From Candidatus Thorarchaeota archaeon (GTDB lineage Archaea > Asgardarchaeota > Thorarchaeia > Thorarchaeales > Thorarchaeaceae), in contig PRDI01000030.1 of the NCBI GenBank assembly GCA_003345595.1, forward strand, positions 1 to 10,626: a stretch of DNA of 10,626 bases, written 5' to 3'. The notes under the pieces are model-generated. The model was not told the origin of the DNA and searched no databases. It saw only the letters and a program-made list of their open reading frames with translations. The translations under genes and the position numbers were made by a program. Below, one piece after another: positions 836 through 10,626 of the stretch. Position 1 is the first letter of the stretch, and each line of letters opens with the position of its first letter.

Positions 836-908
836 GCGCATTGGTGTAGACTGCAAGAACAAGCCCTCCAAGCTTGGGGCCCGGGTTCGATTCCCGGCAG
901 GCGCACCA
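836..908 (+). pseudogene. Degenerate tRNA-Gly(TCC)-like sequence (pseudo-tRNA or att-site remnant)
   Basis: The 3' part is canonical: anticodon stem CAAGC/GCTTG with loop CC-TCC-AA, 4-nt variable loop, T arm CCGGG-TTCGATT-CCCGG, acceptor 3' strand CAGGCGC, discriminator A, encoded CCA. The 5' part is damaged: GCGCATT instead of GCGCCTG, GC in place of the D-loop GG, poor D stem, and C instead of the invariant U33. Confidence 0.7.
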
Positions 909-1041
909 CACCTCTTGTATTCAGATTTGATGTTAGAGTCCATGTCTACACAATCCTTTTGTTTATCACCTTCTGACGGCGCCCTAGTCAACGAGGAAGT
1001 GCTCCTGTGGAGGCTTCTCATGCTCCAAGCTATGCTATGAC

Positions 1042-1046
1042 GAGGA
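1042..1046 (+). promoter_or_regulatory. Shine-Dalgarno-like site of the topoisomerase IB gene
   Basis: GAGGA 6 nt upstream of the ATG at 1053. Confidence 0.45.
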
Positions 1047-1052
1047 CTTTGC

Positions 1053-3089
1053 ATGGACTCGCTACGACACAATGGCATCTATGTACTTAGACCGCCAGAC
1101 CCCCACAATCTGACTATTCATGTCCGCGGCAAGGACATGATACTGGACGGGCTCCAAGAGGAGATGGCCGTCGCTTGGGTGAAGAAGATCGGTACTCCCT
1201 ACGTAGACGACCCGGTGTTCAAGAGCAACTTCTCAAGGGACTTCAGTAAACAGCTAGGCATCAACCCACCTCTACGGCTTGATGACGTCGGAGAAATAGA
1301 CCTCGCTGAGGTGACTGCATTTGTCGAGGTCCAGCGCAAGAGAAAGGAGATCATGACAAGGGAAGAGAAGAAGGCTGACCTAGAGCGTAGGAAAGCAGAG
1401 AGGGAGCAACTCAAGGAGCACTATGGCTACGCCACAGTTGATAGTCAAAAGATGGAACTGGCAAACTACCAGACTGAACCCTCGGGGATATTCATGGGAC
1501 GTGGTCAGCATCCTCTGAGGGGTAGATGGAAGCAGGGAGCATCTGAAAGAGATGTCACCCTTAATCTCGATCCTAGTGCAGTGCATCCTGACGGGAACTG
1601 GAGGAAGATAATGTGGGTGCCGGACAGCATGTGGATTGCAAAGTGGATCGACAGGCTAACGCGGAAAGAGAAGTACATCTGGTTACATGATTCCACGCCG
1701 ATCAAACAGGAGAGGGAGGAGGCAAAGTTTGACAAGGCTCTCAGAATGGAAGAAAAGACCGACCAGATAAGTTCGTACATCATGGAGGGCCTTCACTCGC
1801 TGGAGGCCAAGCGAAGAGAGATAGCTGCTGCATGCTACTTGATAGACAGACTGAGCCTGCGAGTCGGCGATGAGAAGGACCCCGATGAAGCAGATACAGT
1901 CGGTGCCACTACACTAAGGGTTGAACACCTCACTTTCAAGAAAGAGTCAGTAGTCTTCGATTTTCTGGGAAAAGACAGCGTACCATGGCATAGGGAGCTG
2001 GATCTTCCACCTGACATATTTGAGGTTTTCAAAGAGCTCTATGAGAGGGCATCTGAGAAGGTCGAGTCGTTCAAAGCCCGAGCGAGCACGAAAACTTCTG
2101 CTGACCCCAAGAAGATTGCGCTGATATTTCCCGATGTCAGAAGTACTCACGTTAACAAGTTCTTGAGTGAAGTCGATTCGGATCTGACGGCAAAGGTGTT
2201 CAGAACCCTGCACGCCACTGTGAAGATTCGGGATGAATTGGACCAGAGTAAGGTGAGAAGGACAGATCAAGAGTTTGCAAAGAGGGCCGCGTTCAAGAGC
2301 GCGAACCTCGAGGTCGCCAGAGTCATGAATCATACGAAGCAGGCTCCGAAGGGCTGGGCTAGTACCGCCCAGCGGTACGAATCAAGGATCAGGGCCGCAG
2401 AACAAAAGCTGGCTATGACGAGAAAGCGGCTGACCAGTATGAGAGCGCGGCTGAGAGAGGTCAAGAAGAAGGAGGAAGCCGGACGGGCGAAGTTCGAAGA
2501 ATCGGTCCAGCGACAGAAGCAGATTGTCGACAAGAACTGGCAGTCCGTGATTGCATGGCGGGCGCGCCGTGACAAGGCGAACCTCACTTGGGACAACGCG
2601 AGGGATAGAAGACGCCGAACACGAACGAGCAGGCGCAAGGGTCTGACTACCAAGAAGGAGCGCCTCGATAAGGCAAAGGTTAGAATAGACAATACGAGAG
2701 GCCGGCTTGATAAGATTGAGGCTAGTCTTGTCAATGCACGTGCGCGGTACGAGAAGAGCCGTGATGCTTTGGACAAGAGGGTGGCCGCGTTTGCAGCCCT
2801 GAAGGGAACGTCTGCAGAGAGGATTGACCGCGTCCAGGAGGCAGTCCGAGCCCAGAACGACCGGGTGAAGAAGGCCGAAGCAACTAAGCAGAGGCTCGAG
2901 ACAGACTACGAGTTGGCAAACGCCAGCCGAACATGGAATCTCGGTACCTCTCTCAAGTCGTATGTCCATCCACGTGTAGTGCACAAATGGTGCCAGAGAG
3001 TCGACTTGGATTGGCGATCACTCTATTCCAAGACGCTCCAGAGGAAGTTCGCCTGGGTCGAGATGTCCTCACTATCGGGTCAGAAGTAG
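1053..3089 (+). CDS. top1B: DNA topoisomerase IB (long, eukaryote-like archaeal type), 678 aa
   Basis: Motifs LRHNGI, QEEMAVAW..KIGTPYV, EPSGIFMGRGQHPLRG, YLIDRLSLRVGDEK..EADTVG.TTLRVEH, FDFLGKDS, LTAKVFRT, ANLEVARVMNH and LGTSLKSYVHPR. The catalytic pentad R270/K307/R384/H427/Y637 corresponds to human TOP1 R488/K532/R590/H632/Y723. Confidence 0.97.
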   Translation: MDSLRHNGIYVLRPPDPHNLTIHVRGKDMILDGLQEEMAVAWVKKIGTPYVDDPVFKSNFSRDFSKQLGINPPLRLDDVGEIDLAEVTAFVEVQRKRKEIMTREEKKADLERRKAEREQLKEHYGYATVDSQKMELANYQTEPSGIFMGRGQHPLRGRWKQGASERDVTLNLDPSAVHPDGNWRKIMWVPDSMWIAKWIDRLTRKEKYIWLHDSTPIKQEREEAKFDKALRMEEKTDQISSYIMEGLHSLEAKRREIAAACYLIDRLSLRVGDEKDPDEADTVGATTLRVEHLTFKKESVVFDFLGKDSVPWHRELDLPPDIFEVFKELYERASEKVESFKARASTKTSADPKKIALIFPDVRSTHVNKFLSEVDSDLTAKVFRTLHATVKIRDELDQSKVRRTDQEFAKRAAFKSANLEVARVMNHTKQAPKGWASTAQRYESRIRAAEQKLAMTRKRLTSMRARLREVKKKEEAGRAKFEESVQRQKQIVDKNWQSVIAWRARRDKANLTWDNARDRRRRTRTSRRKGLTTKKERLDKAKVRIDNTRGRLDKIEASLVNARARYEKSRDALDKRVAAFAALKGTSAERIDRVQEAVRAQNDRVKKAEATKQRLETDYELANASRTWNLGTSLKSYVHPRVVHKWCQRVDLDWRSLYSKTLQRKFAWVEMSSLSGQK

Positions 3090-3091
3090 TG

Positions 3092-3136
3092 TGGTGCGCT
3101 CGCCGGGGCTCGAACCCGGACCACATCCATGACAGG
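3092..3136 (-). repeat. 3'-half tRNA-Gly fragment (anticodon loop to CCA); att-like direct repeat of the tRNA-Gly(GCC) 3' end
   Basis: The minus strand reads CCTGTCATGGATGTGGTCCGGGTTCGAGCCCCGGCGAGCGCACCA. It aligns without gaps at 38/45 identity to 7941-7985 (CCTGCCACGGATCCGGCCCGGGTTCGAGTCCCGGCGGGCGCACCA). I found no complementary 5' acceptor strand (GCGCTCG) upstream. Confidence 0.85.
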
Positions 3137-3265
3137 CAGAAACGCCATAATCTGTCATAGATATCGTAATATCAACTACAGCCAATTTCTCTCACACACA
3201 TCGCCGCTACGCAGCCCCCGTTTCTGACTAATCCCGCAACAACAAAGTCCGTGAGATGCACCCCC

Positions 3266-6200
3266 ATGAAACTCCACAAGCACCTATTCCTTGCCGTCCT
3301 GTGCGTTACAGTTTCTCTTCCGCTCGTCACTTTCCAGAGGAACTACGAGCCAGCGGCCACGACCAGCATCGAAGGAAACGCGCCTCAACCGATCGGAGTC
3401 AGCGGAGTGCCAGATACAGTGCCTTCGCAGCCACAGCGAACAGGCTCTTTCGTAGTATCTCAGGACTCAATCAGTGGTACAATGAACCCTGTGAGAGTGA
3501 GGCACTCAGGGTATCAAGTGAGTGACATGGTGAGAGCAAGAACAGACACAGGCACGAACACCAAGAGAAGCCTCACGATTGATGAGTCTGGCGGGTGGTT
3601 CGCAAGCCAGGCCGCAGTTGAGGTGACTGACAGCCGAAGACTGTATGCACTGAATGGCACTTTTGATGCTGGAGTCCTCCCGTGGTGGAATTCAACCTAC
3701 GACCCAAGTGGTGGCCGTCAGACTCAGAGTGCAACCTTCAACTCAACTTGGGAGCATGTTTGCGTCACGAACGTCGGCAGGTATCTTGCCGGCACGTACA
3801 CTCACTATGATGGAACAGAAATCCTCTGGTCGCAGACGGTGACCAATTCGCCATTGGTAGAAGACTTCTCTGTTAGCTTCGAATTCCTCTACGAATCCGG
3901 TCCGCTAGACCCCAACGGCGACGACTTCCCATTCTCGTCGGTCTACCTCGTGTTCTATGCAGACTCCCAGCCATACGTACTTGATCTGCTACATGACCTG
4001 GGCTCTAGAAACACGTGGTACGTCGTATCGGACTTCCGACTCAACATCACTGATGCCCCTTCGACCTTCGACATTGCGATAGGGCTGTGGATTTACGCCC
4101 CCTCCGGCAACCTGATCCTCTCGCCCAACGGAGATTACGATGAGGACGGAAACATAGACGGCTTGGCAAACGCCCAAACAATAGACTTGCGGTTGGACAA
4201 CATAGCATTCGAGGGCATCTACGCACCGGGTTTCGAGGAAGTAGACATGACATTTCATGCCGAAGAAATGGAAGCATCAGTAACAGGGACTTCCACAACT
4301 GGCACAGCGACCATCACGAACCCCTCCTACTGGACTACCGACCACTTGCAGGTGGAGATCACTTCGAATACCAGCATCTCTTTCAGCTATAAGGTCACGC
4401 TCCTGATGCATAAGTACGAGAACTCGTCTTGGGCGAGAGACCCCTCGAAGGCCGGAGTCTTGTATGCGATGACGGAAGGCGGGAGCGCACTGCTCACGCT
4501 TTACACCTACGTCGTTGCATCATATGGTTATGAGAATGTTTCAATCGATATTGAGCATCCCTCAGACTGGGAGAACGTCACGGTACTTGATCCGCTGTTG
4601 AACGACCTCACAAGCCAGTGTAATGTTAGTGAGGGTGCGATTGGTGTTCCAAACGGCCTGTTGAGCCGTGTAGGGTGGTGGGAGATACGACTGGACTGTC
4701 CGAACTATGCAGAGAGTCTGATGGCACAGAAGTATAATACAGCGACCGGCGAGTGGTCAGAGGGCTCACTCTTTCGTGCAGGCAACAAAACAAGGATTCA
4801 TGCAGAACTCGGAACAGCGACAAGTACACCGGACCAAGGCCAACCAGCTCAGATCAGTTGGGTCATGCCCAACGGTACCATCTGGAGAGAAGAGAGCATC
4901 GAAGCCATGATCAACGGGGCACTGAACGGTACATCGTGGACACTTGGGGGACAGAACACAACTGCGGGTCAATGGATGTTGGAGCTGTTCTGGACAAACG
5001 GCACTGAGATTGCGTATGCGGCTACTGGGTTCGACCTGTATCATGCCTCGAGCCTGACCGCAGTCCAGTCAGTCATAGAAACCGAGGCCAATTCCGTCAT
5101 CACAAGCATTCTCAGGTACATTGACACCGACAACGGGCGATACTTGATGCAAGATGAAGCTGTGATTGCGGCTAACTGGTCTTCTGGTTCTGTCACTTAC
5201 GACCCTAATCTTGTGAGGAATTGGTGGGAGGCCGATTTCGACACTTCGGTTGTCGGCGGAGGCGAGTTTCTGGTCGTTGTGGACGCCGTACAGTCGTACT
5301 TCGATGATGCATCATGCCAGTTCACCTTGAGAGTGCTCTATGAAACGACACTCGATGTGACATCAATAGGCGGTCCCCTAGCCACGACATCCTATTTGGA
5401 GAACTACACAGTCTGTATGAGATACTTGCTCGCCAATAGCTCCCCAGTAAATGGCGCAGACATCACGTTGGACTACACGGGCCCTGAGAACGGTCTTTTG
5501 TCCTTGGGCTGGAGGGCTTCTGGAGGCGGCAACTACTCGTTTAGTCTCAAGGGACTTGTGTGTGGGCTGTACGCCGTAACAGTGACGGGAACGAAGCAGT
5601 ATCACTATTCAGCATCTGATACATTCATGTTAATGGTCGCTGAAGCGAACACCGTCTTGAATTCACCCAATGGCACATCGGATCTTGTGAGGATAGGTCA
5701 GACTTACAGACTGGTGGTTCATTACGAGAACAGTTCAGGCGGCGGTCTGGCAGGAGCCGATGTTGTGTTGGACAGTATCAACCCTAGTTCGGGACTCACA
5801 TGTGCCAATTTCACGTATGAAGGCAACGGGGACTACTATGCTGACATAACGCCTGCGGTTGCTGGGACTTACACTCTCATTATGCGAGCTTCACTCTATA
5901 ACCATGTTGAGGGAGTCGTGTCATTCGCCTTGACGGCAATGGCGATTCCCACTGAGCTAACGATCAGCAGCTCAGGAGCGAGCGTAGCCATAGATCAGAT
6001 GTACACCGTGCAGCTGTTGCTGTTGGACGACGAAACCTATCCAGTTGACGGCGCATCCATTACCGTGGTGAACCCGCCGCTTGGACTTTTCTTCCAGGAC
6101 TGCGTGCCGTTGTCCGGAGGCCGCTATAACATTACGATTGAGCCGCTCCAGACGGGAACGTACCAGATTGCCTTCAGAGCATCGCGCGAGAACTATCAGT

Positions 6201-7924
6201 ACTCCACTGTAGGTTTCACTCTCATTGTGGGTTATATCCCGACGAGTCTGACAATCGAAGGCGGCGTGTCATCGGATTCGGTTGTCTTCACTGAGGATTG
6301 CGAGATGACTGTAGCATACTTGCGGACAGACGTGGGACAAGAGATTGAGGAAGCAGACTTCGCCCTGACATCAGTCCCCGTTACAGGGCTCGCATGGCGG
6401 GTCACGAACATGACCAGCGGCTACCGGTTGACATTCAGGACTGAGACTGTCGGCATCTGGATGATCTTCATAACTTCAAACAAAACCGGCTACATGGATG
6501 GCTTTGTCCAGTTCGAACTTGAAGTGACGACGATCCCTTCGACCATCAATCAGATTTCATTGGTGGACGACTTGATCTACGGCAGGCTCTACAATTTCAC
6601 CTTCAACTACGTCATGAATAATGCAACAGGGATTGGAGGTGCCAATGTTACCCGTTCTGGACCGGGGGCCGAGTGGGCAACAGTGGTCGAAACTGGCAAT
6701 GGTCAATATCGAGCTACGATGGCGCCCGAAGCAACAGGAACCTACACTCTCACTCTCATGTTTGAGAAAGAAGGCTGCGACACGAAATCGTCGACACTGT
6801 CCTTCGTCGTCATCCCCGCTAGCATGAGCATTGTCGATGTCCAAGGTCTTAATGCATTGGAGGGCGAAAACACAACACTGAGTTTCGGGTTGATTAACTC
6901 GGACTCGGGGGAGCCCATAGTGGGTGCATCTGTCCAGTTTCAGATTGTCACTTCGACCGGACCCGGAGCTATGACTGCCCTTCGAGAAACTAGCCCGGGC
7001 ATCTATACGGCAACGTTCGTGATGTCGTCGTTCGGAACGTCAGACAAGATCCGAGTCTATGCATCACTAGACAACTATGAACTGGACGTGGACAGCTATG
7101 AGGTGGCTCTTAGCCCCTTGCTCAATGAGAGTGCGCAGCTCGGTCGGACGGTCAGTCAACTTAGTCCGTTCATCTTCGTCCTCTGCGTCGCCATTGTAGG
7201 TCTATCAGCCCGGAGAGCATCGCTCAGCAAGAAACGCAGGTGGAACATCAGAGCTCTGGCCACCAAGAGAAGGTTTGACGACATGAAGAGCCTCATTGGT
7301 GTCATCGTGTTGCATAAGGACAGTGGGATACCGGTGTTCTCCAAGATTCTGAAGAGTGGGCTTGATGAATCGCTCATATCGGGCTTCATAGCGGCTATTA
7401 GTCAATTCAGGTTGGAGTTTGGAGTCGATGAAAAGGAGGGGGCAGTGACACCGATATCCGATATCATCAGGGTGGTCAGAACCAAGAACCTCATATGCGC
7501 ATTCATAACACTCGGCTCCCCTACAGATTCGCAGCAGGAGAAACTCCTGCGGTTTGCGAAGTCTGTCGGACTCATGTTTGACAGCATGTATGATTCGCCG
7601 CCCACCGGTATTATTGACCGTGAACGGTGGACCCAATACGAGAAGCTATTCGACGATCTTCTCGATGGCCATCTTCTTGACGACTACAGATATGCCGAAG
7701 ATATGAAGCTGCCAAGGAGTCTTCGTACAGTCGCCAAAGCTGTGCGCCGGCTGGAGAACCCGGACAAGTTTGGTCTCGAAACCCTTGCCAGAGAGATGAC
7801 CGGCCTCGGCGTAGAGGAAACAAAGGTATACACCGAAATAGCTGATGCCATTGAGAAGCACTATCTGGTCCCATTGCCCTCGCAAACTGACGTGCGCCCC
7901 GAAGCTCCAGACCCTGTACCTTAA
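3266..7924 (+). CDS. Large single-pass membrane/surface glycoprotein: signal peptide, beta-rich N-terminal region, about 7 Ig-like repeats, TM helix, cytoplasmic longin-like domain and possible winged-helix domain
   Basis: The ATG at 3266 (MKLHKHLFLAVLCVTVSLPLVTF) gives a basic-plus-hydrophobic signal peptide; the track start is GTG 3251. There are many NxS/T sequons and ~95-100-aa repeats with GA(D/S/N)(I/V)...GxGxY...GxY (~5040-7110). TM segment SPFIFVLCVAIVGLSA is followed by RRASLSKKRR (positive-inside). The tail IGVIVLHKDSGIPVFSK...DESLISGFIAAISQF has a longin-like pattern. Confidence 0.85.
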   Translation: MKLHKHLFLAVLCVTVSLPLVTFQRNYEPAATTSIEGNAPQPIGVSGVPDTVPSQPQRTGSFVVSQDSISGTMNPVRVRHSGYQVSDMVRARTDTGTNTKRSLTIDESGGWFASQAAVEVTDSRRLYALNGTFDAGVLPWWNSTYDPSGGRQTQSATFNSTWEHVCVTNVGRYLAGTYTHYDGTEILWSQTVTNSPLVEDFSVSFEFLYESGPLDPNGDDFPFSSVYLVFYADSQPYVLDLLHDLGSRNTWYVVSDFRLNITDAPSTFDIAIGLWIYAPSGNLILSPNGDYDEDGNIDGLANAQTIDLRLDNIAFEGIYAPGFEEVDMTFHAEEMEASVTGTSTTGTATITNPSYWTTDHLQVEITSNTSISFSYKVTLLMHKYENSSWARDPSKAGVLYAMTEGGSALLTLYTYVVASYGYENVSIDIEHPSDWENVTVLDPLLNDLTSQCNVSEGAIGVPNGLLSRVGWWEIRLDCPNYAESLMAQKYNTATGEWSEGSLFRAGNKTRIHAELGTATSTPDQGQPAQISWVMPNGTIWREESIEAMINGALNGTSWTLGGQNTTAGQWMLELFWTNGTEIAYAATGFDLYHASSLTAVQSVIETEANSVITSILRYIDTDNGRYLMQDEAVIAANWSSGSVTYDPNLVRNWWEADFDTSVVGGGEFLVVVDAVQSYFDDASCQFTLRVLYETTLDVTSIGGPLATTSYLENYTVCMRYLLANSSPVNGADITLDYTGPENGLLSLGWRASGGGNYSFSLKGLVCGLYAVTVTGTKQYHYSASDTFMLMVAEANTVLNSPNGTSDLVRIGQTYRLVVHYENSSGGGLAGADVVLDSINPSSGLTCANFTYEGNGDYYADITPAVAGTYTLIMRASLYNHVEGVVSFALTAMAIPTELTISSSGASVAIDQMYTVQLLLLDDETYPVDGASITVVNPPLGLFFQDCVPLSGGRYNITIEPLQTGTYQIAFRASRENYQYSTVGFTLIVGYIPTSLTIEGGVSSDSVVFTEDCEMTVAYLRTDVGQEIEEADFALTSVPVTGLAWRVTNMTSGYRLTFRTETVGIWMIFITSNKTGYMDGFVQFELEVTTIPSTINQISLVDDLIYGRLYNFTFNYVMNNATGIGGANVTRSGPGAEWATVVETGNGQYRATMAPEATGTYTLTLMFEKEGCDTKSSTLSFVVIPASMSIVDVQGLNALEGENTTLSFGLINSDSGEPIVGASVQFQIVTSTGPGAMTALRETSPGIYTATFVMSSFGTSDKIRVYASLDNYELDVDSYEVALSPLLNESAQLGRTVSQLSPFIFVLCVAIVGLSARRASLSKKRRWNIRALATKRRFDDMKSLIGVIVLHKDSGIPVFSKILKSGLDESLISGFIAAISQFRLEFGVDEKEGAVTPISDIIRVVRTKNLICAFITLGSPTDSQQEKLLRFAKSVGLMFDSMYDSPPTGIIDRERWTQYEKLFDDLLDGHLLDDYRYAEDMKLPRSLRTVAKAVRRLENPDKFGLETLAREMTGLGVEETKVYTEIADAIEKHYLVPLPSQTDVRPEAPDPVP

Positions 7925-7933
7925 GGATGGACA

Positions 7934-7940
7934 GGAAAAG
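7934..7940 (-). terminator. Short pyrimidine/oligo-T tract after tRNA-Gly
   Basis: The minus strand reads CTTTTCC directly after the CCA; archaeal terminators are oligo-T tracts. Confidence 0.4.
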
Positions 7941-8015
7941 TGGTGCGCCCGCCGGGACTCGAACCCGGGCCGGATCCGTGGCAGGGATCCATCATAGCCC
8001 CTAGACAACGGGCGC
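7941..8015 (-). tRNA. tRNA-Gly(GCC), intronless, CCA encoded
   Basis: GCGCCCG-TT-GTCTAGGGGCTATGATG-GATCC-CTGCCAC-GGATC-CGGC-CCGGG-TTCGAGT-CCCGG-CGGGCGC-A-CCA. Perfect 7-bp acceptor stem, 5-bp anticodon and T stems, anticodon GCC, and discriminator A73 as in archaeal tRNA-Gly. Confidence 0.96.
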
Positions 8016-8041
8016 AGCGACAGAACCCGCGATGGCGAGTG

Positions 8042-8048
8042 TTAAAAA
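8042..8048. promoter_or_regulatory. Archaeal TATA box, probably for tRNA-Gly (- strand) and possibly shared with the divergent acyltransferase gene
   Basis: TTAAAAA on + and TTTTTAA on -, 27-33 nt upstream of the mature tRNA 5' end (8015) and about 21-27 nt upstream of GTG 8069. Confidence 0.55.
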
Positions 8049-8068
8049 GCTTGTCGAAGGAGGGGAGC

Positions 8069-9193
8069 GTGGAATGCAGTTTGGCACTCACAAATCAAGT
8101 GCATTTGGGTGGACCGGTAGTCCAAGAGCGTCTAGACTGGATTGAGATGGCCAAAGGCATTGGTGTGACGTTCGTTGTCCTCGTACACTCCATCATCCCC
8201 CGGATAGACCCTGTGACCATCCATCTTAGTAGCTTCACGATTCCTCTCTTCTTTGTTTTGACAGGGCTGACTTACAACAATGAAAAACACAGAACCCATC
8301 TGAGGAATCTGGCCACCTCACGAGCACGCCAGATTCTGATTCCGTACTTCTCACTCTACGTTATCATGATGGTCCTGTTCATCCCCCTGTCGCCAAGCAT
8401 CGAAACCTACCTGACTCCTGACCAGCTGCTCTTCTGGTTTCTCTACGGCAGTGGTCCTCCAGATTCCGCGACACATCTATGGTTCCTGCAAGTCCTATTC
8501 CTTGCACTGATGCTCTTCGCGGCCCTTGACAGAATCACGTACAGTCTGCCAAGAGCATTCAGATGGGTCATGTCATTACTACTGGTGCTTGCTGCTGACG
8601 TAATCTGGTCTCTCTTCCGCCCCGTCCTAGTCCCGTGGCGAATCAGCTCAGTCCTTGTTGCTGCATCAATGATGATTATTGGTAATGAGATGCGTCGACT
8701 GAGAGGTCTGAAACGTTGGAGCTATGGGTCTCGTATCAGAAACATGATTGATGTTTTACTGGTTGCGACTGTCTTGTTGACATTATCCCAGCTCAACGGG
8801 TTCACTGACATGGCAGTCGACAGATATGGGGTGAGCCTCTGGCTCTACGTTCCAGCAGGAGTCCTGGGCTCGGTACTTGTGTTTCAGGTTTCGAGTCTGC
8901 TCGACAGATTCACGGTTTCAAAGAGGGCCTTCCTCGCTCTTGGCAGCGTATCACAGGAGGTGTACGAAGTGCATCCCGTGCCTTTCTTGTTGGTGCCGGT
9001 AGCCGCCTATGCTTTCGGCATCACCCTAGCGGACAATGCCGACCTGAGTTATTCCCTGTGGCCAGCACGGTTCATACTCGGCACCGGGTTATCTCTTGTG
9101 CTAGTGAATCGTCTGATTAGAAGAAACCGTTTTCTTTCATTAGTCTTCCGCGGCACACCTCTGCACAGAGCATCCAACAGCTCCGAGCGTTGA
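8069..9193 (+). CDS. Acyltransferase family 3 (OafA/fucose-4-O-acetylase-like) polytopic membrane O-acyltransferase
   Basis: Motifs ERLDWIEMAKGIGVTFVVLVH, FTIPLFFVLTG, LIPYF, HLWFL and SQEVYEVH, with roughly 10 hydrophobic segments. The start is uncertain (GTG 8069 after AAGGAGGGG, or GTG 8099/TTG 8105). The track start at 7940 overlaps the tRNA antisense and is rejected. Confidence 0.88.
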   Translation: MECSLALTNQVHLGGPVVQERLDWIEMAKGIGVTFVVLVHSIIPRIDPVTIHLSSFTIPLFFVLTGLTYNNEKHRTHLRNLATSRARQILIPYFSLYVIMMVLFIPLSPSIETYLTPDQLLFWFLYGSGPPDSATHLWFLQVLFLALMLFAALDRITYSLPRAFRWVMSLLLVLAADVIWSLFRPVLVPWRISSVLVAASMMIIGNEMRRLRGLKRWSYGSRIRNMIDVLLVATVLLTLSQLNGFTDMAVDRYGVSLWLYVPAGVLGSVLVFQVSSLLDRFTVSKRAFLALGSVSQEVYEVHPVPFLLVPVAAYAFGITLADNADLSYSLWPARFILGTGLSLVLVNRLIRRNRFLSLVFRGTPLHRASNSSER

Positions 9194-9249
9194 ACAGGAT
9201 TGGCATCAGAGTTAAGAGATGCCTGCGGCCTCTTGCTTCTGGGTGCCTC

Positions 9250-9963
9250 ATGACCGAGAGCAAGCTCCTGAAGAGCCAGAAACGGCAGATCATGCGTGAG
9301 ATCTACGATAATCACATGCTCTTGACCGCGAAGCGCGACCGTCCTGAAGGGTGGAAGCTGCTTTCCGGACTATGGAGCCCGTTCTACATTCAGCTTCGAA
9401 TTCTCAGTTCATTTCCAAGCACTCTGAAGAAAGTAGGAAAAGCCATGTCGTTGATGCTGAAGGAGGAGGCTCCACATGTCAACAGGCTGGTTGGAGTTGC
9501 ATTTGCTGGAGTGCCAATTGCCACGGCTGTGTCCATCGAGTCAGGACTTCCTGCATGCCATACCCGAAAGTTTGTTGGTGTGACATCCGAGGATGACCTT
9601 CAGAAGGCACTGACCCAGTATGGCCAGCACTCGATGCTAGAAGGGGATGTCCAAGATGGTGATGTCCTCTGTCTGGTCGACGACCTTGTAACACAGATGG
9701 ATGCGAAGATCATGGCACGTACTCAAGTCCTCTCTGAGCTGGAGCGACGAGGAATCAAGAATGTGAAGTGTGATGATGTTGCCGTCCTGATCGACCGTCA
9801 GCAGGGGGCGGCTGAGCGTGCAAAGACTTCCGGGATACGTCTGTTCTCGTTGATCAAACTGGTTGACGAGGGGCTTCCCATGATCAAGGACCTCATGTCG
9901 GTAAGTGATTACGATCAGATTAGAGCCTACTTGGCCGACCCCAGCAAGTTCCAAGACCGCTGA
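9250..9963 (+). CDS. pyrE: Orotate phosphoribosyltransferase (divergent type I PRTase), 237 aa
   Basis: WKLLSGLWSPFYIQLR (LxSGxxSxxY hood motif), LVGVAFAGVPIAT, RK...LEG loop, LVDDLVT PRPP motif and VLIDRQQGA. ATG 9250 is preferred over TTG 9190. Confidence 0.8.
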   Translation: MTESKLLKSQKRQIMREIYDNHMLLTAKRDRPEGWKLLSGLWSPFYIQLRILSSFPSTLKKVGKAMSLMLKEEAPHVNRLVGVAFAGVPIATAVSIESGLPACHTRKFVGVTSEDDLQKALTQYGQHSMLEGDVQDGDVLCLVDDLVTQMDAKIMARTQVLSELERRGIKNVKCDDVAVLIDRQQGAAERAKTSGIRLFSLIKLVDEGLPMIKDLMSVSDYDQIRAYLADPSKFQDR

Positions 9964-10033
9964 AGGATGTGAGATATACCAGCATTCTTACAAAGGGCTC
10001 ATCTTCTCGACGTGATAGGTTGTGTCGAGCCCG

Positions 10034-10483
10034 ATGAATGAACAGAAGAGCCCAATTGACCAGATGCTGAACTTGGCGCTTGCGACAGCAATGAACCAGT
10101 ATCAGTTCTACCTTGATATCTCGTCGAAGGTGGAAACTACCAAGGTAAAGGAGTTGCTCTTGTCATTGGCAAGGTCAGAAGAGGCGCTTATCACCAAGAT
10201 TGAGTCGATGATGGCGTCCGGAGTTGTCGACGCTGTCGAGAGAGCGCGCACATTGGAAGAGGACGAGCCCGACGACACCCCATTCGATTTAGTGCAAGCA
10301 GAAACTGATCCCCGTCTGTATGTCTGCAATAGGGCATTGAAAATGACGATGAAGGGCTACACATTCTATCTGTCAATAGCTGCCAGAGCAAAGTCCGAGG
10401 TCATCAGTCGAATGTTCCGCTACTTTGCGCACATGAAAGCGGAACAGATTCGGCAGATTCGCTTCATTTGTGAGAGTCTCTGA
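10034..10483 (+). CDS. Ferritin-like/rubrerythrin-family four-helix-bundle protein with degenerate diiron ligands
   Basis: Two internally repeated helix pairs (LNLALATAMNQYQFYLDISSKVETTKVKELLLSLARSEEALITKI and CNRALKMTMKGYTFYLSIAARAKSEVISRMFRYFAHMKAEQIRQI) match the AxxxExxxxxFY...LAxxExxH rubrerythrin-type repeat in spacing. ATG 10034 is preferred over GTG 10022. Confidence 0.72.
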   Translation: MNEQKSPIDQMLNLALATAMNQYQFYLDISSKVETTKVKELLLSLARSEEALITKIESMMASGVVDAVERARTLEEDEPDDTPFDLVQAETDPRLYVCNRALKMTMKGYTFYLSIAARAKSEVISRMFRYFAHMKAEQIRQIRFICESL

Positions 10484-10572
10484 ACCCGGAACCTAGGACT
10501 GTTTCTGTTAGAACACGTGTTCCAAAGACCGACGACCTCCTTGGTGCGTAACCGAATCTTTTCACCAATACA

Positions 10573-10579
10573 TTTATAT
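10573..10579 (+). promoter_or_regulatory. Candidate TATA box for a gene starting at or beyond the right edge
   Basis: TTTATAT in an AT-rich intergenic stretch; the downstream gene is not visible in the window. Confidence 0.35.
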
Positions 10580-10626
10580 TCATTTGCTCAAATGATAGAA
10601 ACAACGGTCTGTAGAGGACTTGGTCG

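Follow-up and report, generated by a model that had tools for sequence, protein, structure and literature searches.

Remnants of two tRNA-Gly genes facing the topoisomerase IB gene of a Thorarchaeota archaeon: probable scars of two island insertions

Archaeal tyrosine integrases typically use attachment (att) regions that span a tRNA gene from the anticodon loop to the 3′ end (PMC8371274), and integrase-driven inversion between tRNA/att sequences has been documented in Thermococcales (PMC5495485, PMC8371274). Here we set against these systems a locus of a Candidatus Thorarchaeota archaeon in which the gene for topoisomerase IB (TopIB) lies between two inward-facing remnants of tRNA-Gly genes, copy A on its left and copy B on its right. 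The window, that is, the whole stretch of DNA analysed, is the complete contig C30 (PRDI01000030.1, 10,626 bp) of a metagenome-assembled genome (MAG; GCA_003345595.1, here G000) of 2.73 Mb in 129 contigs, 83% complete. G001, G002 and so on are relatives in the same family, the nearest being G001 (same genus, TopIB 89% identical), and L-numbers designate the TopIB loci of the relatives.

A first, sequence-only reading of the window had considered an invertible or mobilised TopIB cassette, or a TopIB that itself promotes recombination, and had given two independent island scars as the plain alternative. It is this alternative that is borne out by the empty sites of the nearest relative, by the junctions and by the differing ages of the scars. 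Copies A and B very probably are the 3′ portions of two paralogous tRNA-Gly genes, disrupted by two independent island insertions beside a housekeeping gene. An attractive but unsupported mobile or self-recombining TopIB thus gives way to documented tRNA-gene integration scars in an Asgard archaeon.

The inverted repeats and the islet at the tRNA-Gly(GCC) gene

Copy A, read at 878-911 on the + strand, and copy B, read at 3089-3122 on the − strand, agree at 29 of 34 positions and differ at five; a repeat finder draws the pair as arms 875-916 and 3084-3125, 42 nt long and 81% complementary. The CCA is followed by CAC in both copies, whereas the intact tRNA-Gly(GCC) at 7941-8015 (−) has CTTTT there. 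TopIB (1053-3089, +) is the sole long open reading frame between the repeats, and its stop codon TAG (3087-3089) is separated by 2 nt from the CCA of copy B (3092-3094, −). All these features, first noticed in the bare sequence, were confirmed by re-reading, as was the statement that neither copy is an intact tRNA. Indeed, the gene at 7941-8015 is the only tRNA that ARAGORN finds in the window and the only one detected by the Rfam tRNA model RF00005 (53.3 bits), and Infernal gave no tRNA match for A or B, returning over A just a 16-bit tmRNA match and a 23-bit mascRNA match. Neither copy shows a complete cloverleaf, A having two mismatches in its acceptor stem and no D-arm, and B being devoid of any 5′ half.

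The 3′ end of the intact tRNA-Gly(GCC) matches A at 30/32 positions and B at 27/29, and the two copies match each other at 27/31. Since each is nearer to the intact gene than to the other copy, their similarity reflects tRNA ancestry and not chance. The earlier description of both copies as tRNA-Gly 3′ ends is right as to their origin; for A, however, it falls short, as the tRNA-derived stretch runs from the anticodon stem at 860 to the CCA at 908. The 24 nt ahead of it (836-859) are tRNA-like in look, yet do not represent the 5′ half of the orthologue. A census of orphan tRNA 3′ ends, confined to the G000 assembly, found no others besides A and B; the Infernal tRNA search of five relatives listed full-length matches only.

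The nearest relative provides the empty sites. In G001 an intact tRNA-Gly(GCC) lies on the opposite strand 2 nt past the TopIB stop codon, and an intact tRNA-Gly(UCC) lies on the same strand 146 nt upstream of the gene; both inserts described below are absent. The 3′ flanks of these two G001 genes are the flanks of A and B, CAC included, so that the CAC extension, which had been remarked upon as a continuation of the match, is real but is simply the native 3′ flank of both tRNA genes. Alignment of the window to G001 by blastn gives two collinear blocks, 860-3136 (91% identity) and 7940-10626 (90%), which overlap in G001 by 46 bp, namely the tRNA-Gly(GCC) gene from the anticodon loop to the 3′ end: positions 2327-2372 of the G001 locus L032 align both to window 3091-3136 and to window 7940-7985. 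The window carries this overlap twice, which marks 3137-7939 as an insertion flanked by direct copies of the tRNA segment. The resulting direct repeat, 3092-3136 against 7941-7985 on the same strand, is identical at 38 of 45 positions. The alignment shows copy B (3092-3136, −; 45 nt from the anticodon loop to the CCA) as the displaced 3′ part left at the ancestral spot, and the copy at 7941-7985 completes the functional tRNA, the whole gene at 7941-8015 being identical to that of G001.

The inserted 4.8-kb islet (3137-7940, +) is filled almost completely by one gene (3251-7924), which leaves 114 nt upstream and 16 nt downstream and encodes a 1557-aa Ig-repeat surface protein in which Pfam recognises only Ig-like and CarboxypepD_reg domains. 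This gene belongs to a large multicopy surface-protein family found throughout Thorarchaeota. Its orthologue in G002 is 68% identical and stands in a different context without tRNA fragments, the homology beginning exactly at window position 3136; as to the origin of the islet gene, this G002 context has no clear orthologous context in G000. The alignment to the empty site shows that the single-gene islet entered the GCC gene at the anticodon loop, duplicating 45-46 bp of the 3′ part of the tRNA. The copy at the far end of the insert completes the tRNA at 7941-8015, and the old 3′ part has stayed by the TopIB stop codon as copy B and is decaying. Between copy B and the tRNA there are 7 changes in 46 positions, six of them transitions, which is consistent with a long-decaying pseudogene fragment.

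The tRNA-Gly(UCC) junction and the left-hand DNA

On the left, homology to G001 starts at precisely the base, 860, that opens the tRNA-Gly(UCC) anticodon stem, and the DNA upstream of this point is unrelated. Copy A (860-908, +), 49 nt from the anticodon stem to the CCA, is followed by its native 3′ flank and is identical to the G001 orthologue; the native spacer and the TopIB upstream region (909-1052) are conserved in G001, with 96% identity by blastn over 860-965. With the four-fold degenerate sites of TopIB, which differ by 22% between G000 and G001, as the neutral yardstick, either copy A was disrupted recently or selection still acts on the segment. The contrast between 7 changes in 46 positions of B and none in 49 of A indicates that the two scars are independent events of different age.

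Searches of 60 family genomes and of the syntenic region of G001 gave no DNA match to the first 859 nt of the window, and the local alignment of 601-859 with the region upstream of the G001 tRNA does not rise above shuffled controls. These 859 nt hold the 5′ part (236 codons; 1-708, −) of a gene for an LmuA/Cap4-type nuclease, of a kind typical of defence islands, which runs off the contig start (Pfam Cap4_nuclease, 7.6e-9; PADLOC LmuA, 2.9e-13), and then the non-coding junction DNA of the left insert (709-859), with the pseudo 5′ part 836-859. The cargo of both inserts is accessory: among 61 genomes, only this one has the LmuA-like nuclease DNA, and the surface-protein gene is multicopy and is found elsewhere in G002.

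As the end of homology at 860 shows, everything 5′ of the UCC anticodon stem has been replaced by unrelated DNA carrying the LmuA/Cap4-like defence nuclease. In the mechanism that we favour, this DNA would be one end of another, younger integrated island. The other end of the island would sit in an assembly gap, along with the core genes R19 and R20 and the intact tRNA-Gly(UCC). The upstream flank in G001 corresponds to G000 contig C106, whose end falls about 1.3 kb before the tRNA position. All the relatives for which an upstream flank was obtained have R19 and R20 beside TopIB. The G000 assembly lacks both genes, and its contig with R17 and R18 ends just before their expected position. Both insertions would be the work of tyrosine-type integrases acting on the att region between anticodon loop and 3′ end, supplied in trans or since lost.

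Several observations weigh against this account. The intact tRNA-Gly(UCC) that should be the partner of copy A is not in the G000 assembly, which leaves the direct-repeat structure on the left unproven. No second copy of the 49-nt part was found there either, exact-pattern scans for the A junction in genome-contig and metagenome-contig collections gave no match, and contig-end overlap searches for C30 and C106 gave none. One candidate, a tRNA-Gly(UCC) with an 800-nt "intron" that ARAGORN proposed in circular mode on contig C17, was rejected as a wrap-around artefact of a truncated long-arm tRNA at a contig end. Moreover, the fit of the right-hand islet to its one gene is tighter than a decayed larger element would predict. 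No recombinase appears in the Pfam analysis of the window's open reading frames, in the islet or elsewhere, and PF00589 has no match in the 83%-complete assembly (SSV-type and serine recombinase models were not searched), which agrees with the earlier remark that no integrase is visible. PF00589 occurs in only 16 of 41 family genomes; this patchy pattern also fits accessory mobile-element enzymes, and these Thorarchaeota appear to be without a core Xer-type recombinase. Finally, A shows no decay and has an acceptor complement upstream, so that it may, with low probability, belong to an interrupted gene that still functions.

In such a gene the 5′ exon would begin at 759, and the splicing endonuclease would excise an intron of about 75-95 nt. 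The heptamer 759-765, 94 nt upstream of A, is exactly complementary to the 3′ strand of the A acceptor, the bases before it match the start of the G001 gene at 11 of 12 positions, and A itself is unchanged. Relatives do carry interrupted genes, with D-loop introns in both tRNA-Gly genes of G002 and G003 and many tRNA genes 100-140 nt long, and some of 2,397 simulated exon joins were accepted by ARAGORN. However, in all the accepted splice products the D-stem has 3 bp and the D-loop is devoid of the conserved GG, and the 18 nt expected to match the D-arm of G001 do not. The 5′ arm of a 12-bp hairpin (755-766 / 830-841) holds the acceptor complement, and this helix sets the putative splice sites 12 bp apart, with no bulge-helix-bulge motif in the fold. 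The match at 11 of 12 positions is within chance for the space searched, and where R19 and R20 are expected upstream a defence gene is found instead. We therefore consider the interrupted gene very unlikely. The hairpin may be a relic of the attachment region of the element, or it may be an older tRNA fragment.

The join at 860 could also be an assembly chimera made through a second, identical tRNA-Gly(UCC) 3′ part, the gene on the TopIB side being really intact. The window is the whole 10.6-kb contig of a MAG in 129 pieces, the join falls at the start of a potential repeat of about 50 nt, and the neighbouring contig stops 1.3 kb short of the tRNA position. Nevertheless, the assembly has no second copy of the 49-nt part and a 50-nt repeat is below the typical read length; even if a chimera had formed, the junction on the LmuA side would be an integration scar of the same tRNA. 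We give this explanation too a very low probability.

Some features of these tRNA genes deserve mention on their own. G002 (L003/L041) and G003 (L028/L036) have a D-loop intron of about 46 nt in both tRNA-Gly(UCC) and tRNA-Gly(GCC); in G002 the two genes (L041:8802-8937 and 12299-12434) form a 136-nt inverted repeat, 76% identical, and their introns are homologous. The intron is absent from both genes in G000 and G001. This pattern points to spread of the intron, or to gene conversion, from one isoacceptor gene to its neighbour. In G000, contig C49 carries at 33322-33349 (−) a tRNA-like element, missed by ARAGORN, with T-arm, acceptor and CCA and a perfect acceptor complement 104 nt upstream, which is probably another intron-containing tRNA gene. 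Position 33, a U in nearly all tRNAs, is a C in the anticodon loop of tRNA-Gly(UCC) in G000 and G001 (window 865-871; L002:1308-1314) and a U in that of the other genera compared here.

The topoisomerase gene, its neighbours and its reversals

The gene enclosed by the two scars behaves as a core gene. TopIB is a eukaryote-like enzyme of 678 aa with three Pfam domains, Topoisom_I_N (PF02919), Topoisom_I (PF01028) and Topo_C_assoc (PF14370), all above cut-offs; its closest solved structure is the archaeal 6z01 (4e-128), with which the catalytic tyrosine motif aligns. We found it in 24 of the 24 other family genomes sampled, and a check of the G000 assembly for a second copy found the gene to be single. 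Its surroundings, R10-R20 / tRNA(UCC) / TopIB / tRNA(GCC) / R22-R27, are kept across genera. In the family arrangement, tRNA-Gly(UCC) precedes TopIB on the same strand and tRNA-Gly(GCC) follows it on the opposite one, so that both 3′ ends face TopIB. In a survey of about 55 Thorarchaeota loci with 3-kb flanks, tRNA-Gly(UCC) is upstream of TopIB in most, and the TopIB loci of Bathyarchaeia (37-49% identical) and other phyla retrieved by the same search have no adjacent tRNA-Gly. The comparison of neighbourhoods suggested with the first reading thus places tRNA-Gly genes beside TopIB across Thorarchaeota, and intact at the same positions in G001. Single copy, presence throughout the family and conserved synteny show TopIB to be a vertically inherited bystander and not a mobile unit; the repeats are remnants of the two isoacceptor genes. 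The idea of a mobilised cassette is not supported at this locus.

The right flank (8016-10626, +), with the acyltransferase R22 followed by R23 and R24, is collinear across the family. Within it, weak matches to archaeal C/D-box small RNAs (sR17, sR33 and sR5; 17-19 bits, below cut-offs) lie at 9740-9792 (+), within an open reading frame at 9190-9963 or overlapping it; C and D box motifs can be recognised there.

Scars of the same kind recur beside TopIB. At least five other Thorarchaeota MAGs have orphan tRNA-Gly fragments there. At L084, L094, L132 and L090, tRNA-Gly(UCC) 3′ fragments starting from the anticodon loop are found between the position of the intact tRNA and TopIB, and at L084 and L094 the intact tRNA is 1.2-1.4 kb upstream in direct orientation, with a single 405-aa open reading frame between. 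In G003, a 39-nt direct repeat surrounds a 3.4-kb two-gene islet at the GCC gene. Variable slots elsewhere hold unrelated single genes (LRR, WD40, FG-GAP, hydrolase, ClC channel, BNR propeller). No integrase was found in the variable slots of the relatives, and no tRNAs near the 10 family integrase loci that were fetched. As both tRNA 3′ ends face TopIB and elements insert downstream of the tRNA, all insertions land beside TopIB, and this geometry is enough to explain the association of the islets with the gene. The islets at L084:1067-2352, L094:956-2351 and L035:6294-9715, each with one or two genes and no integrase, run exactly from an intact tRNA-Gly to an orphan 3′ fragment, a pattern that looks cassette-like.

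Could TopIB itself, or some other integrase-independent activity on the anticodon-arm DNA of tRNA-Gly, have made the islets and the reversals described below, as a self-associated recombination hotspot? The poxvirus TopIB can promote site-specific recombination in vitro. Neither the window nor the G000 assembly shows an integrase, the integrase-less islets recur in several MAGs at exactly the two tRNA-Gly genes by TopIB, and A and B have no orphan counterparts elsewhere in the assembly. Against this, the enzyme is a standard eukaryote-like TopIB in its three domains and its closeness to 6z01, the Bathyarchaeia loci do without an adjacent tRNA-Gly, the anatomy of the junctions is that of classic tyrosine-integrase att sites, the patchiness of integrases in the family is as expected of mobile elements acting in trans, and the adjacency is trivial given the inward-facing 3′ ends. 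The more precise proposal of the sequence-only reading, TopIB-promoted recombination at the T-arm of tRNA-Gly, is not supported for this locus, the breakpoints being at the anticodon stem and loop and not at the T-arm. On sequence grounds, the analysis yields nothing specific in favour of a catalytic role of TopIB at the locus, and we regard such a role as extremely improbable.

An inversion of the segment has more in its favour. When gene order is mapped with the outer flanks as anchors, only TopIB proves to be turned around between its two tRNA genes in G003, G013 and G015, the last with an additional flip of the downstream block. The standard orientation is found in G043, a congener of G013, and in G000-G002, congeners of G003; as these congeners keep it, at least two of the flips are independent. 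The window itself has the ancestral orientation. The claim of an invertible TopIB is thus not supported for the present locus and stands at the evolutionary scale, both orientations being seen between species. Two further observations touch these flips. A reversal of the tRNA only is seen in one lineage (genus g3 and others; L056-L062, L070, L079, L087, L093, L097 and L099), where tRNA-Gly(UCC), constantly about 198 nt upstream of TopIB, has changed strand. In G003, a long-read MAG whose locus was read from two overlapping contigs joined at 99.3% identity, the single TopIB gene (L035:9861-11912 = L036:64-2116) shows several in-frame stops in search alignments, which may stem from errors of sequencing or mean that the flipped gene of this genome is a genuine pseudogene.

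It is possible, although we hold it to be rather doubtful, that the inverted tRNA-Gly repeats make TopIB invertible, by homologous recombination or by an integrase that recognises both att regions, and perhaps still do so within populations. The repeated reversal of TopIB alone with respect to both tRNA genes and the outer flanks argues for it, as does the fact that the ends of each flip fall between a tRNA 3′ end and TopIB. Archaeal integrases do invert DNA between att sites and tRNA genes (PMC5495485; PMC8371274), and in this genus the similarity of the two 3′ halves is unusually high (30/32). The inverted repeats at the segment ends measure 42 nt (81%) in the window, 136 nt (76%) in G002 and 83 nt (78%) in G013. 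On the other hand, the window retains the ancestral orientation, and in the only traceable pair, G002 and G003, 11 nt just 3′ of the GCC fragment stayed with the fragment, which puts that crossover outside the tRNA homology. Sensitive alignment of the G003 and G002 spacers gave scores at shuffle level and did not place the breakpoints, and G013 and G043 are too diverged (about 69%) for breakpoint tracing. Nor is any recombinase found nearby, the segment having TopIB as its sole gene and no invertase or integrase domain. The crossovers lie between the tRNA ends and TopIB and could not be assigned to tRNA homology. For the flips in the relatives, integrase-driven inversion would be the most economical model, with homologous recombination between the repeats as the alternative.

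The TopIB neighbourhood is thus a hotspot in Thorarchaeota, where small cargo-only islets accumulate without a visible integrase and where the enclosed core gene has been flipped at least twice independently. The locus can serve questions on single-gene acquisition in Asgard genomes, on recombinases acting in trans and on short tRNA-derived inverted repeats driving local inversions.

Comparison with known systems

The TopIB of the window is like that of Thaumarchaeota (PDB 6z01) in its domain architecture, in its aligned catalytic tyrosine motif and in behaving as a core chromosomal gene. It differs from the solved archaeal enzyme in a longer linker, and only in this Thorarchaeota family does it stand between two tRNA-Gly genes.

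The reversals recall the inversions made by the Thermococcus pTN3 integrase (PMC5495485), as opposed tRNA-derived sequences bracket a segment seen in both orientations. However, the segment here is about 2-4 kb with one gene and not hundreds of kb, no integrase was identified, the traceable breakpoints are just outside the tRNA homology, and the window is not inverted.

Compared by layout and not by protein homology, the right-hand islet also has an aloposon-like aspect, in that a very long gene ends beside a tRNA gene used as an integration site in an Asgard archaeon. Here there is one gene of 1557 aa instead of tandem genes of 3000-6000 aa, with no ParA/MinD-like or other element genes.

In structure the locus is like the tRNA-gene islands of tyrosine integrases (sublocation classes of Williams 2002; PMC8371274). 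It departs from them in that both inserts and the assembled genome are devoid of an integrase, the right islet is one tight-fitting gene, and the left island is seen by one end only. It shares with them the insert downstream of the tRNA, the direct repeat running from the anticodon loop to the 3′ end, the restored tRNA, the displaced 3′ part by the old flank, the empty site in a relative and the accessory cargo.

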